Positions 30,347-39,755 of a DNA stretch of 64,000 bases are shown here, one piece after another. The stretch is from Candidatus Rokuibacteriota bacterium. GTDB taxonomy: Bacteria > Methylomirabilota > Methylomirabilia > Rokubacteriales > CSP1-6. The translations under genes and the position numbers were made by a program. Position 1 is the stretch's first letter. The number at the start of each line of letters is the position of its first letter. The DNA lies in assembly GCA_036802765.1 (NCBI GenBank), contig DAIRVP010000002.1, positions 4,152 to 68,151 of the forward strand, in the 5' to 3' direction. Below the pieces are notes generated by a model. It did no database searches and was not told the DNA's origin. It saw only the letters and a program-made list of their open reading frames with translations.

Positions 30347-30769
30347 TCAGTGCTTGGGGTCGTTGCTGACGTTCGTGCCCTGCACCGGATAGCCCTTCGC
30401 GTGCCAGCCCGGCAGGCCTTCTTCGAGCACCCGCTGGTTCCGCCATCCGAGCGCGTACAAGACGTTGCTGGCCCCACGGGACAGCGCGTGCGGACACGTT
30501 CAGTAGAAGACGACGAGCCCGGTCTTGCTGATCTCCGGCGCGCGCCGCTCGACGCTCCGCAGCGGCATCGAGCGCGCGCCCTTGATGTGCATCTCGACGT
30601 ACGCGTCCCAGTTCCGCACGTCGATGATGTCCGCCTTCTCCCCCCGATCGAGCGCGGCCTTGAACTCGTCGACCTTGATGAAGTTGACCGGAGCGTCCGG
30701 CGGTGCGGCGGGCGCGGCCCCGATCAGCACGATGGCCGCCGCGAGCGCCGGGATCATTGCGCGCCGCAT
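30347..30769 (-). CDS. secreted single-domain rhodanese with in-frame TGA at the catalytic Cys position (candidate selenoprotein)
   Basis: Signal peptide, then a rhodanese fold (...TGLVVFY-[TGA]-TCPHALSRG...LPGWHAKGYPV). The TGA falls on the ORF-track boundary at 30500-30502. The frame continues in the same phase to a real stop at 30347. Confidence 0.5.
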
Positions 30770-35938: not shown

Positions 35939-37852
35939 TCAGAACAGGCTCAGCTGCGGCGATTCCGGCTCGTCGTCGACATACGCCACGAGGCCATCCT
36001 GCTCGGTGAAGCGACGAAACCGCTCCCACGTCTCGAGCACCTTCGACTGGTAGTACTCCACGTTCTCGTCCGGCCGCGCGGCATCCCAGAGGCTCGCCAG
36101 CTTCGCGACGTCGCTGACGGCCACGCGCGCCGTGCGGCCCGCGACATAGTAGGAGATCTGATCGCCCGGCTGCACCGGACGTCCGCTCGCCGCGGCGAGC
36201 TCGTAGGCTGCAGACACCGGCCGCAGTCCGGCTGCGACGCGCTCGCGATAGACCTCAAGTGATTCTTGAAGTGTCTCGCTGCGCGCGAAGACGCGCACGT
36301 CGAGCCGATGCGCGGCGAAGTCCGCGAGCCAACGGTCGACCACGGCCTTGGCGTCGGCGCGACGCCCGAGCAGGAGCAACCGGACCAGCTCGTCGATCAG
36401 CCTGCGCTGGAAGGGCTCCAGCCCACGCGAGCGGAAGGCCGAGCCCTTGAGCGTCACACGTCCGCGCGCATCGAGCAGCGCGTACGTCTTCATCTTGTAC
36501 GAGAACATCGCCGGATAGCGCCCGTCGAGTTCGAGCGTGATGCCGGGCGGCAGCTTGTCGGTCAGCGCTTCGAGCAATCGCCGGTCGTCCGCGACGGTGT
36601 GGCTGGACGCCGGTGTGAAGTACACGCCGTCCGTGTCGGCCTCGATCGGCGTGGCACCAAGCGCACGCAGGCCATCGACGACGGACGTCACCACGGCGCG
36701 GCCGTCGGCGGTGACGCGATTGGCGGCGTCGAAGTCGTTCCAGTGGGCGGAAGAAAAACCGAGATATCCGTAGAACGAGTTGATGAGAATCTTGAACGAC
36801 TGCGACAGCGCCAGGTGGTGCTGGCGCTCCTCGTCGACCACGGCCGCCTGCGCCTGACGCTTGGCGGTCACCCGCACGTCACGCAGGTGAGTCAGCAGAT
36901 CCAGAAAGACGCCGAGCTCGTCGCTCGCGGGCGCGACGCGACCGGCGATCATCAGCGACGGATAGAGCGACGTGACGTCGACGTGGAGCACCGGCGCCGC
37001 CACGCCCTGCTGCCAGACCGCGGTGAGTCCGCCGCCGACCGACTGCCCCGGGCGTGGTCGCGGCACGGCGCGGCCGACTCGGAGGTACTCGCGCAGCAGC
37101 AGCGCATCGACCTTGGCGGCGGAGCCGCGCAGCGTGGTGGCCTGGTAGTCGAACGGCACGAGCTGCGCCTGGGCGAAGTAGGGCGGCGACAGGATCGCCG
37201 AAATCGCGAGCGTCTCCGCGGCGTCGTCGCCCGCGTACGCCATGAGCCGGTCGGCGTCCTCGGCGAGCTGGCGGGCAACATTCGAGGCGTCGACGTAGGT
37301 GCGGTCCGCGGCGGCGACGCCGAGATGTCGCGCGATGTCCTTGAGGCCGAACGAGGGGAGGTCGCGTGCGCCGACATCGTGCAGCTGGGCAAGCATCCAC
37401 GTGTCGATGATGTGACGGCCGGCGACCTCATACCGGCGAAACCCGATCGCCCGCTCGGCGACTTGCAGTCGCGCCGGCCGGCTGCGTAACAGGCTGCCGT
37501 CGCGACCCCACGCGAGCCGCACATCGTGTCGCCGCGCACGCGCCTCGAGATACTCGAGGTCGAAGCGGAAGATGTTGTGGCCTTCGATGACGTCCGGATC
37601 GCGCTCGCCGATCAGACGTCCGCATTCGGCCAGCAGCGTCGGCTCGTCGAGTCGATCGCCGCGGAGCACGTGACGAAACCCCGTCGAGTCCGCGAGGGCG
37701 ATCGCGACGATGCGATCCCCGGGACGGGCCGCGGATGGGAATTCATAGCCGTCGGTCGTCACGACCTCGATGTCCAGCGCGAGACGTCGAAGATCGCCGA
37801 AGTGCAGTGTGCCGAAGGAGGTGCGCCCGGTGGTGAGCAGATACTGGTGCAC
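35939..37852 (-). CDS. family-B DNA polymerase, short form (exonuclease + polymerase core, no N-terminal domain)
   Basis: Exo I DIE at residue 27, motif A DVTSLYPSL, motif B KILINSFYGYLG and motif C ADTDGVY. 637 aa. Confidence 0.8.
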   Translation of the reverse strand: MHQYLLTTGRTSFGTLHFGDLRRLALDIEVVTTDGYEFPSAARPGDRIVAIALADSTGFRHVLRGDRLDEPTLLAECGRLIGERDPDVIEGHNIFRFDLEYLEARARRHDVRLAWGRDGSLLRSRPARLQVAERAIGFRRYEVAGRHIIDTWMLAQLHDVGARDLPSFGLKDIARHLGVAAADRTYVDASNVARQLAEDADRLMAYAGDDAAETLAISAILSPPYFAQAQLVPFDYQATTLRGSAAKVDALLLREYLRVGRAVPRPRPGQSVGGGLTAVWQQGVAAPVLHVDVTSLYPSLMIAGRVAPASDELGVFLDLLTHLRDVRVTAKRQAQAAVVDEERQHHLALSQSFKILINSFYGYLGFSSAHWNDFDAANRVTADGRAVVTSVVDGLRALGATPIEADTDGVYFTPASSHTVADDRRLLEALTDKLPPGITLELDGRYPAMFSYKMKTYALLDARGRVTLKGSAFRSRGLEPFQRRLIDELVRLLLLGRRADAKAVVDRWLADFAAHRLDVRVFARSETLQESLEVYRERVAAGLRPVSAAYELAAASGRPVQPGDQISYYVAGRTARVAVSDVAKLASLWDAARPDENVEYYQSKVLETWERFRRFTEQDGLVAYVDDEPESPQLSLF

Positions 37853-38196
37853 GGGATCCGGAAAGAAGCGGTATGGCGCCTCGGGCGCGTTGGCTGGCAG
37901 TCCGGTCGTCTCGCGGCAGCGCTCGCGTGCCGCGAGCGCCGCGCTCCAGGAGACGAAGCGCGCGAGCCAGCACAGGCCGCCCCCGCCCGCCAGGCGCGTC
38001 GTCGCGACGAGCCCCGCGGCGCCGCTGAACAGCGCGTCGTCGGCGGCCAGCAGGAAGGGTGTGAAGGCAACATGCTCGACCCGCGTGGCGGCCGCCTCGC
38101 GGAGCCAGAGGCGGATGGTGCGGCCGTCCTCGGCCAGGGCGGCGGCGACGAGCCCCGGTGTGGGGTCGGCGCCGAACAGCAGCGGTGTCGAGACGC

Positions 38197-38808
38197 TCAG
38201 CCGGCGGCTTCCTCGACGGCGGCGCGGTACGTCGCGGCGTCGACGAGGCCCACGAGTGAGCGCCCGGACTGGGGCAGGATGACCGCCGGGATCGCCCGCA
38301 CGCCATCGGCCACCGCCGCCTCGTAATCCTTCACGACGGCCTCGCGGCCCACGCCGGCCTCGAGATCGGCGGTGTATCGCGCCATATCGACGCCGGCGTC
38401 GGCGACGATGTCGGCGACGACGCGCGGGTCGGCGATGTTCAGGCTTTTCGTGAAGTACGCCTCGTAGAGCCGCGGATGCACGCGCTCGAACAGCTCGTCA
38501 CCCTGCCGCGCCACACACTTGGCCGCCTCCAGCGCGGGCATGCTCCAGTTGGGCATCGTCGGGTGGGGCCACGGCGTGAATGCGATGCCGTCGTCGGCGG
38601 ACATCGCGTGGCAGCGCTGCCATCCTGCCTCGCGATACGTGCCCTTGAACGGCACCGGCGGCACCGGGGTCGGACGCAACGGAAACGCGCGATGCTCGAT
38701 CACGAGCGAAGAGCCGCGAGCCTCTTGCAAGCGCCGGAGGCGGACCGCCGCCGGATAGCACCACGGTCAGAGATAGTCGCTGTAGAGGACGAGTCGGACG
38801 TCGGCCAT
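38197..38808 (-). CDS. DsbA/FrnE-like thiol-disulfide oxidoreductase with in-frame TGA replacing the first Cys of CxxC (candidate selenoprotein, U-P-W-C)
   Basis: The ATG at 38808 gives MADVRLVLYSDYL-[TGA 38767-38769]-PWCYPAAVRLRRL..., in frame with the ORF 38197..38730. The alignment logic matches FrnE IEIWSDFVCPFCYIGKRRL. Confidence 0.55.
38734..38754 (-). promoter_or_regulatory. candidate SECIS-like hairpin 12 nt downstream of the UGA in the DsbA-like gene
   Basis: mRNA CCGGCGGCGGUCCGCCUCCGG forms a CCGG/CCGG plus GGC/GCC stem with apical loop GGUCC containing GU. The spacing is similar to bacterial SECIS elements, but such hairpins are expected by chance at 70% GC. Confidence 0.25.
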
Positions 38809-38849
38809 GCACGATTCTATACCCGAAGCTGTCGGTATATGCTCGACGC

Positions 38850-39755
38850 GTGATCGACGTCTCGGTCGAGTACGCGCGCCATCTGCTCGGCGCGGTGGTG
38901 AACCTGCACGCGCAGGTGCCGAAGGCGCATCCGTCGTCCCGGATCCTGGGCAGCGAGCGCATGGGCAGCGGCGTCATCGTCGATGCGTCGGGTCTCGTCC
39001 TCACCGTGAACTACGTCGTCATGGGCGCCCACACCGTCGACGTCGCGTTCCTCAAGGGCCGCCGCGTGAAGGCCGAGGTCGTCGCGCAGGACTTCGAGAT
39101 CGGGCTCGCGGTCGTTCGCATCAAGCGTCAGGGTCTCACCGCCATTCCGCTTGCCGACGGCGAGCTGAGCTGTGGCGATCCGGTCGTCGCGGTGGCGTCG
39201 ACCGGACCTCAGGAGCGTCGCGTCGGCGGCGGGCTCGTCACCTACCTGGGTGAGTTCGAGGCGTACTGGGAATACCTGCTGGATCACGGCATCGTCACCA
39301 GCGCTCAGAATCCGGGGTTCGGCGGCGGCGGCCTGTTCTCGATGACGGGCACGCTGCTCGGCATCGTCTATCTGAACCTCAACGAGATCGTCCGCTGCTC
39401 GCTGTCGATTCCCGTCGACAACTATCGCGAGCACGCCAGCGAGCTGCTCCGGTATGGCCGCATCGTGAGCCGCCCCAAACGTGCCTGGCTCGGCGTCTTC
39501 GCGACCGCGGTCGACGAAGGCGTTGTCATCGCGGGCATCGTCCCCGAAGGGCCCGGCGATCGCGGCGGGCTGCAGGAGGGCGATGTGATCGTGTCGCTCA
39601 ACGCCGAGGAGGTACCGAGCCGCAAGGATCTCTATCTCACGCTGTGGCGCCACGGACCCGGTGAACGGCTGACGCTCGAGGTGATGCGCGACAAACGGCT
39701 GCGTCGCCTCGAGGTGACGACCGGCGACCGCGCGGAGTTTTTCAAGCAGATTTAG
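38850..39755 (+). CDS. S1C (HtrA/DegP-like) trypsin-like serine protease with C-terminal PDZ
   Basis: Protease domain (GSGVIVDASGLVLTVNYVV, GFGGGGLF) followed by a PDZ-like domain (GIVPEGPGDRGGLQEGDVIVSLN). Confidence 0.8.
   Translation: MIDVSVEYARHLLGAVVNLHAQVPKAHPSSRILGSERMGSGVIVDASGLVLTVNYVVMGAHTVDVAFLKGRRVKAEVVAQDFEIGLAVVRIKRQGLTAIPLADGELSCGDPVVAVASTGPQERRVGGGLVTYLGEFEAYWEYLLDHGIVTSAQNPGFGGGGLFSMTGTLLGIVYLNLNEIVRCSLSIPVDNYREHASELLRYGRIVSRPKRAWLGVFATAVDEGVVIAGIVPEGPGDRGGLQEGDVIVSLNAEEVPSRKDLYLTLWRHGPGERLTLEVMRDKRLRRLEVTTGDRAEFFKQI

Follow-up and report, generated by a model that had tools for sequence, protein, structure and literature searches.

A family of DsbA-like selenoproteins (PF01323/COG2761), in which selenocysteine (Sec, U) occupies the first position of a UxxC motif, was described by Zhang, Fomenko and Gladyshev in their 2005 analysis of the Sargasso Sea (PMC1088965), and such proteins are also present in Anaeromyxobacter, Desulfovibrio and Desulfotomaculum (PMC1794560). 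A 2026 review (PMC13188914) lists this class as DsbA-like selenoprotein 'form 1'. Here we describe a DsbA/FrnE-like gene with an in-frame TGA as codon 14, located on the minus strand of a 64,000-nt stretch of DNA (hereafter the window) from Candidatus Rokuibacteriota bacterium (GenBank assembly GCA_036802765.1, contig DAIRVP010000002.1, positions 4,152 to 68,151 of the forward strand). Very probably, this is a genuine Sec-encoding gene. It shares with 'form 1' the PF01323 domain, the position of Sec as the first residue of UxxC, the widespread occurrence of Cys homologs and a hairpin of the bacterial selenocysteine insertion sequence (bSECIS) type directly after the UGA. Members published earlier were found in marine metagenomes, Deltaproteobacteria and Firmicutes, whereas those described here belong to soil Rokubacteria/Methylomirabilota. 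They represent a new clade of the known DsbA-like UxxC class, as judged from the family description of the published members only.

Another group of UxxC thioredoxin-fold selenoproteins, the Rcas_1661/DsbG-like (seleno)lipoprotein family NF041057, gave the best NCBIfam match, which was rejected: with 53.5 bits against a cutoff of 190, and an alignment confined to residues 87-198, the protein is not a member. The proteins of that family are lipoproteins, whereas the one described here carries neither a signal nor a lipobox sequence.

The in-frame TGA and its conservation

The DsbA-like frame reads MADVRLVLYSDYL-TGA-PWCYPAAVRL... and then meets no further stop until the terminal TGA. The initial annotation had proposed that a frame starting at the ATG at 38808 crosses a single TGA at 38767-38769 and continues into a 177-aa open reading frame (ORF), and all of these coordinates were recovered when the translation was repeated. 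This 177-aa ORF (38197..38730), opened by a TTG at 38730, is the sole piece of the frame in the mechanical ORF list. When Cys is placed at codon 14, the Pfam DSBA domain (PF01323) matches residues 6-197 and spans the TGA (E=8.6e-22, 78.3 bits versus a cutoff of 25.6). The orthologs have the same architecture, with 203-206 codons and, in nearly all of them, a terminal TGA. Since TGA is the terminal stop of the gene itself and of 11 of the 12 genome orthologs, UGA is an ordinary stop codon in these organisms, and its recoding at codon 14 must depend on the local context.

A search of 5.8 billion proteins retrieved 711 homologs, the best 120 of which were inspected for their annotated length. Nearly all of these 120 are annotated as proteins of 152-184 aa that begin after the TGA and cover 67-90% of the query, indicating that gene callers cut the DsbA-like family after the Sec codon everywhere. 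The database entries thus look as the initial annotation had foreseen for a product made without read-through, which would begin downstream and lose its redox motif. To follow the codon itself, the DNA of the orthologs was fetched from one genome per species, and a metagenome scan was carried out in addition. All genome loci that cover the site carry the TGA (12/12; Rokubacteria/Methylomirabilota, 47-86% identity), in the context ...VYSDYL*PWCYPAAVRLR... and with the start codon 13-15 codons upstream, and so do all the metagenome loci (79/79; 64-100% identity). The frame is kept on both sides of the TGA in the 91 loci, at 47-100% identity overall, which argues against the truncated pseudogenes that had been considered at the outset. 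The placement of TGA at the same codon in 91/91 orthologous loci is far beyond chance.

In more distant relatives (<=44% identity), the position is occupied by Cys, encoded by TGC or TGT in the context SDYLCPWCY, in 67/67 loci, distributed over a Rokubacteria paralog type, Myxococcota, Binatia, Chloroflexota and others. The proposed comparison with Cys homologs therefore sets U-P-W-C in 91 orthologs against C-P-W-C in 67 distant homologs. The codons that flank the TGA vary synonymously (GAC/GAT, TAT/TAC, CCG/CCC, TGC/TGT), from which it follows that the stretch around the TGA is translated, and the switch between TGC and TGT at codon 17 indicates that it is the amino acid, rather than the nucleotide, that is under selection. 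The Leu codon CTC just before the TGA (38770-38772) is fixed in 57/57 unique sequences.

The sole DsbA-like ortholog without the TGA is L168 (protein P0045), in which AGA (Arg) stands at the Sec position. Regarding the wider family, a Cys-type paralog family exists in Rokubacteria (L014-L020, L022, L029), which reads MTAPVRLDVFSDYLCPWCYNAAVRL... and is ~39-44% identical to the Sec type; no copy of this paralog lies in the 64-kb window. One ortholog, 85% identical, is found on a 5.3-kb contig (L009, DATFWE010000056.1) of a metagenome-assembled genome (MAG) labelled Haliangiales (Myxococcota). This contig ends before the Sec codon, and the label likely reflects mis-binning, all other close orthologs being from Rokubacteria/Methylomirabilota.

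The candidate SECIS hairpin

The bSECIS consensus given in the 2026 review (PMC13188914) comprises an apical loop of 3-9 nt on an upper stem of 4-16 bp, a G in the first two loop positions that is usually followed by G or U, a distance of 16-37 nt from the UGA to this loop, and a minimum free energy (MFE) of <= -7.5 kcal/mol. The initial annotation had pointed to a GC-rich hairpin with a GU-containing apical loop beginning 12 nt after the UGA, and this structure was found by RNA folding of the region. Its stem consists of 8 pairs flanking one C.U mismatch, and its loop is either GUC (3 nt) or, with the closing G-C pair opened, GGUCC. The predicted energy is -13.2 kcal/mol for a 30-nt segment and -12.7 kcal/mol for the bare 21-nt hairpin. 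The candidate hence lies within the published model in all four respects, namely the loop, its G-U start, the 21-nt spacing and the MFE. Like the fdhF-type SECIS of E. coli and the consensus bSECIS, it is a stem-loop that lies within the coding sequence and closely follows the UGA, it has G-U in the apical loop at a spacing that falls within the consensus range, and its stem is interrupted by a one-nucleotide irregularity (a C.U mismatch or a bulged U). Its sequence is unrelated to that of fdhF, and SelB would be its presumed binding partner.

The hairpin is under marked constraint at the RNA level. The GGU of the loop region is invariant in 42/42 distinct sequence variants, and when pairwise synonymous divergence was compared across 198 seven-codon windows in 11 close Sec-type sequences, the hairpin codons (PAAVRLR) ranked lowest (0.026 versus 0.317 gene-wide). 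Both Ala codons of the hairpin are GCG in 57/57 unique sequences, compared with a GCG/GCC/GCA/GCT distribution of 38/12/4/3 at Ala +27 in the same set. The major codon accounts for 93-100% of the sequences at each of the six codons of the stem; at Val +8, the wobble base of which sits in the loop and varies among C, T and A, the figure is 86%. Where the stem does change, the folding potential tends to be retained by a change of register. In the two most divergent Sec forms (L012 and L013), three synonymous changes (CCG>CCU, CGC>CGG and CUC>CUG) break the original pairing and yield a perfect 7-bp stem one register over, leaving the distance between GGU and UGA unchanged, and in L148 both arms of the lower stem are altered together while the hairpin is retained by a register slip. 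In the AGA variant L168, the hairpin has decayed (GCG>GCC, GTC>GTG and CGG>CAC).

The protein and a second recoded gene

Both by sequence and by fold, the nearest solved relative of the protein is FrnE of Deinococcus radiodurans, which together with the Pfam DSBA match agrees with its initial assignment to a DsbA/FrnE-like family. The best match by sequence in the PDB (E=6e-7) aligns SDIACPWCYIG of FrnE to SDYLUPWCYPA, so that the TGA falls on the first Cys of the FrnE CPWC motif, just as it falls on the Cys of the 67 homologs described above; its proposed position at the nucleophilic Cys of C-P-x-C is thereby borne out. An AlphaFold model was obtained for the full-length ortholog P0045, encoded by L168 and hence with Arg at the Sec position, with a pLDDT of 90.9. 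It displays, in this order, strand beta-1, the active-site loop, helix alpha-1, a helical insertion and a C-terminal beta-beta-alpha unit. Foldseek searches with this model returned FrnE first (template modelling score, TM, 0.78-0.82), followed by SCO1869, YjbH, 2-hydroxychromene-2-carboxylate (HCCA) isomerase, the cytosolic reductase DsbM and kappa-class glutathione S-transferase (GST), with periplasmic DsbA far lower. The N-terminus leads directly into beta-1, with no hydrophobic leader and no signal peptide.

The likeness to FrnE, a cytoplasmic protein (PDB 5cnw, 5cp1, 5xwh), extends to the redox motif, in which C-P-W-C matches U-P-W-C, to the lack of a signal peptide and to a G/A-x-P loop. 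By analogy with thioredoxin/DsbA folds, P174 of the invariant I173-P174 pair is presumed to be the cis-proline that faces the active site. FrnE differs in having Cys in place of Sec, in sharing only ~18% sequence identity, and in its length, its 260-residue chains being ~50 residues longer by a C-terminal extension that is absent here, where the chain ends with ...YRAAVEEAAG at residue 203 and contains no Cys after C98. The extra C-terminal tail of FrnE carries a second Cys pair, which we take to be a defining feature of that protein. Lacking such a tail, the DsbA-like protein is FrnE-like in fold and not an FrnE ortholog. Besides U14 and C17, the Sec-type clade has two further Cys residues with full or almost full conservation, C66 (in G-W-x-R-C) and C98 (in A-A-K-C), for which a structural disulfide, a second redox pair or a metal site can be envisaged.

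Taken as a whole, the product is almost certainly a ~22-kDa cytoplasmic thiol-disulfide oxidoreductase of the FrnE/DsbM branch of the DsbA superfamily, with the active site U14-P-W-C17. In the mechanism that we propose, UGA-14 would be read as Sec during translation by a SelB-type elongation factor carrying Sec-tRNA(Sec), which would be recruited by the hairpin, whose apical loop with G-U lies 21 nt beyond the UGA. The terminal TGA, located 190 codons later and without such a hairpin, would lead to termination. Sec would then lie at the N-terminus of helix alpha-1, facing the loop that contains I-P174, where the U14 selenolate would carry out the attack and cycle between the selenolate and a selenenylsulfide with Cys17 in the reduction or isomerisation of cytoplasmic disulfides. 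Selenium incorporation, SelB/SECIS recognition, the redox chemistry and the substrates are in this scheme what we infer.

A second recoded gene lies 8 kb away. A scan of the window for further in-frame TGAs, based on the coding frame indicated by GC content at third codon positions (GC3), identified a single-domain rhodanese in which a signal peptide precedes a PF00581 domain (residues 33-125, E=3.7e-14) and a TGA stands at the catalytic-Cys position. The other in-frame TGA candidates from the GC3 scans were mostly adjacent genes sharing a frame, and only the rhodanese survived. Most of its best 120 homologs are annotated as 89-aa proteins ending at the TGA, and the homologs P0122 and P0154 have Cys at this position. 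Ortholog DNA (72-84% identity) retains both the TGA and the frame downstream of it. A conserved hairpin also follows this TGA, and one of its variants shows a compensatory swap from G-C to C-G through two synonymous changes. The two genes are syntenic, since the rhodanese locus L166 and the DsbA-like locus L008 lie on one MAG contig. The U-x-C-P motif of the rhodanese corresponds to none (0/5) of the rhodanese selenoprotein 'forms' (UxxS, UxxG, CxU, UxxG and UxxxxU) in the 2026 review (PMC13188914), and the best NCBIfam match, NF041203, reaches 46.8 bits versus a cutoff of 115. A single full-length rhodanese homolog, L169 (P0121), has Arg through an AGA in place of the TGA and retains the hairpin. 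It originates from a different ENA sample than L168, and the two AGA variants may stem from a lineage in which Sec decoding was lost, or may be inactive copies.

A TGA conserved at the catalytic Cys of the rhodanese implies that the organism recodes UGA more than once. The literature on the phylum points in the same direction: one Methylomirabilota MAG has 63 predicted selenoproteins, the largest bacterial set reported according to the 2026 review (PMC13188914, citing Deng et al. 2026), and Sec-type group 4 [NiFeSe] hydrogenases occur in Methylomirabilota (PMC13582414). Sec use by the organism is well supported, if indirectly, by the rhodanese TGA and this literature, and the doubt that the initial annotation had expressed in this respect is largely removed by them.

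Alternative readings, genomic context and significance

Several observations weigh against a Sec-encoding gene with a functional SECIS. With regard to the machinery, tblastn searches with E. coli SelA, SelB and SelD returned only noise for selA, selB and selD in the window, in agreement with the absence of sel genes noted initially, and in ~690 kb of related loci. ARAGORN likewise detected no tRNA or tmRNA in the 64-kb window and only Ser and Leu tRNAs in the ~690 kb, so that the Sec machinery is inferred and not seen. Rfam identified no family at gathering thresholds across the whole window, and no curated NCBIfam selenoprotein hidden Markov model (HMM) reaches threshold for the protein. With regard to the hairpin, a column-wise count of covariation in a fixed register found zero compensatory pairs, which is explained by a stem that hardly varies. 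Compared with shuffled sequence, the 86 nt that follow the UGA show no excess stability (z = -0.33). In this window of 68% GC, a model-compliant hairpin comes after ~20% of all TGA trinucleotides, and one that is equally stable after ~4-5% of them. Taken on its own, the hairpin is only weakly beyond chance. Moreover, the PAAVRL amino acids are conserved in the Cys forms too, so that protein coding accounts for some of the conservation seen in the nucleotides. Finally, RNAalifold favours a weak alternative in which UGACC pairs with GGUC (-7.1 kcal/mol). This pairing was rejected as a functional element because it sequesters the very codon being decoded and cannot exist during decoding; it also leaves the constraint on codons +9 to +11 unaccounted for. 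The hairpin is accordingly a strongly constrained, model-compliant SECIS candidate as far as sequence comparison goes, and not a proven SECIS.

Three other explanations of the TGA have to be considered. An intact gene interrupted by a single in-frame stop would first bring to mind an error of sequencing or assembly, or a pseudogene produced by a recent mutation. This explanation is effectively refuted by purifying selection on both sides of the codon and by the recurrence of the TGA in 91 independent assemblies, which derive from many samples and span 47-100% identity; an independent contig that is 100% identical (L082) has it as well. The conservation of TGA and frame, together with the ordinary use of UGA as a stop, excludes a reassigned genetic code as well as error and pseudogene. 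It is also highly improbable that the TGA is a true stop, the functional product being the shorter database protein that starts at a downstream TTG, ATG or GTG and lacks CxxC, with the upstream part acting as a leader peptide or regulatory region. Gene callers annotate the family in that form everywhere and the TTG-initiated 177-aa ORF is at hand, but the positions of the downstream starts are not conserved, as the annotated lengths show, and the 13 codons before and 12 after the TGA are conserved as amino acids with synonymous variation. Those codons encode beta-1 of the DSBA domain together with its CxxC loop, and every distant homolog is a full-length protein with Cys. From general knowledge of thioredoxin folds, a DsbA fold deprived of its first strand and its active site would lack both stability and catalytic activity.

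The remaining explanation accepts that the UGA is read through, by an amino acid other than Sec, through a near-cognate Trp or Cys tRNA or a suppressor tRNA, with the hairpin merely slowing termination. It would accommodate both the lack of detectable Sec machinery in the window and the related loci and the still presumptive binding of the hairpin by SelB. We nevertheless regard it as very unlikely, because the recoded positions are those of the catalytic Cys in two redox/sulfur-transfer families that are unrelated to each other and both include Cys homologs, which is the hallmark of Sec, and because the geometry and G-U loop of the hairpin fit the bSECIS model. In addition, extensive Sec use is reported for the phylum, Trp at the nucleophile position would inactivate the enzyme, and TGA is a normal stop in the same genes. 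Decoding of UGA-14 as Sec is thus the reading that we retain.

The features of the locus are collected in Table 1. The DsbA-like gene is preceded by a conserved TATAGAAT located 5-6 nt before its ATG, and it lacks a Shine-Dalgarno sequence; a two-hexamer sigma-70 promoter scan of the region upstream of the gene found none. As a tentative reading of its position, the motif may represent a -10-like element of a leaderless or short-leader transcript, and the two upstream motifs possibly belong to a control region common to the divergent trypsin-PDZ protease gene (38850-39755, plus strand). Two short-chain dehydrogenases/reductases (SDRs) and a BrkB-family membrane protein are, with this protease, the upstream neighbours, and an ORF resembling family-B DNA polymerases (PolB) lies downstream. 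These neighbouring genes offer no functional clue for the DsbA-like protein.

In the PolB-like ORF, the conserved peptide PLLFGADP starts ~15 nt past the stop of the DsbA-like gene, and the first ATG, GTG or TTG of the frame is found 114 codons further down in the window, at a position that varies among orthologs, nearly all of which lack a conserved start codon of these types. The junction GGC-TGA-GC (38194-38202) is nearly invariant, and the CTG that overlaps the DsbA-like stop might serve as a coupled, non-canonical PolB start. That Sec decoding at codon 14 gates the PolB-like ORF through termination-reinitiation seems improbable; if PolB were made only in this way, the availability of selenium or SelB would set the level of a DNA polymerase. 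A Cys-containing DsbA-PolB 'fusion' in the protein-level catalogue (P0067) was set aside and not used as evidence: it is probably a chimeric assembly, because ~90 residues are skipped across the junction.

Table 1. Positions in the window of the DsbA-like gene, the rhodanese gene and associated elements
Feature	Position	Strand	Details
Coding sequence of DsbA/FrnE-like selenoprotein	38197..38808	-	Complete; 203 codons including one Sec-UGA, plus TGA stop 38197-38199
Start codon ATG of DsbA-like gene	38808-38806	-	From translation
In-frame UGA, codon 14, proposed Sec codon	38767..38769	-	Nucleophilic first position of U-P-W-C
Resolving Cys of U-x-x-C, codon 17 (TGC)	38758..38760	-	Cys invariant in all Sec and Cys forms
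Pro of 'A-I-P' loop, codon 174 (CCG)	38287..38289	-	I173 and P174 invariant in alignment A1; aligned with FrnE G-V-P loop
Codons C98 and W63-R65-C66	38509-38511 and 38605-38613	-	From alignment of Sec-type clade
Candidate bacterial SECIS hairpin CCGG-C-GGCG[GUC]CGCC-U-CCGG	38734..38754	-	21 nt, begins 12 nt after UGA
Apical loop of candidate SECIS	38743-38745	-	21 nt after UGA
Conserved motif GGTATAGAAT(C/T)	38814..38823	-	5-6 nt upstream of ATG; in most orthologs, ~64-100% identity
Conserved motif GAGCATA(C/T)ACCG	~38833-38845	-	~10 nt further upstream
Family-B DNA-polymerase-like ORF	35939-38200	-	PF00136 and PF03104; directly after DsbA-like gene
Secreted single-domain rhodanese, candidate selenoprotein	30347-30769	-	Signal peptide followed by PF00581
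TGA of rhodanese	30500-30502	-	LVVFY-U-TCPHALSRG, catalytic-Cys position
Rhodanese hairpin CUG(U/G)CCC[G(U/G)G]GGGCCAG	30468-30484	-	G-first loop 22 nt after UGA

The known picture of Sec decoding is unchanged by the DsbA-like gene, which a specialist would find expected rather than surprising. Together with the rhodanese, it provides checkable examples for the unusually large selenoproteomes recently claimed for Methylomirabilota/Rokubacteria of soil and groundwater, and its uniform 21-nt hairpin is a handy natural SECIS candidate with which to approach SelB specificity in an uncultured phylum. For the family as a whole, hundreds of database clusters are N-terminally truncated 'DsbA family protein' entries without an active site, and recognition of the Sec codon restores the real protein.

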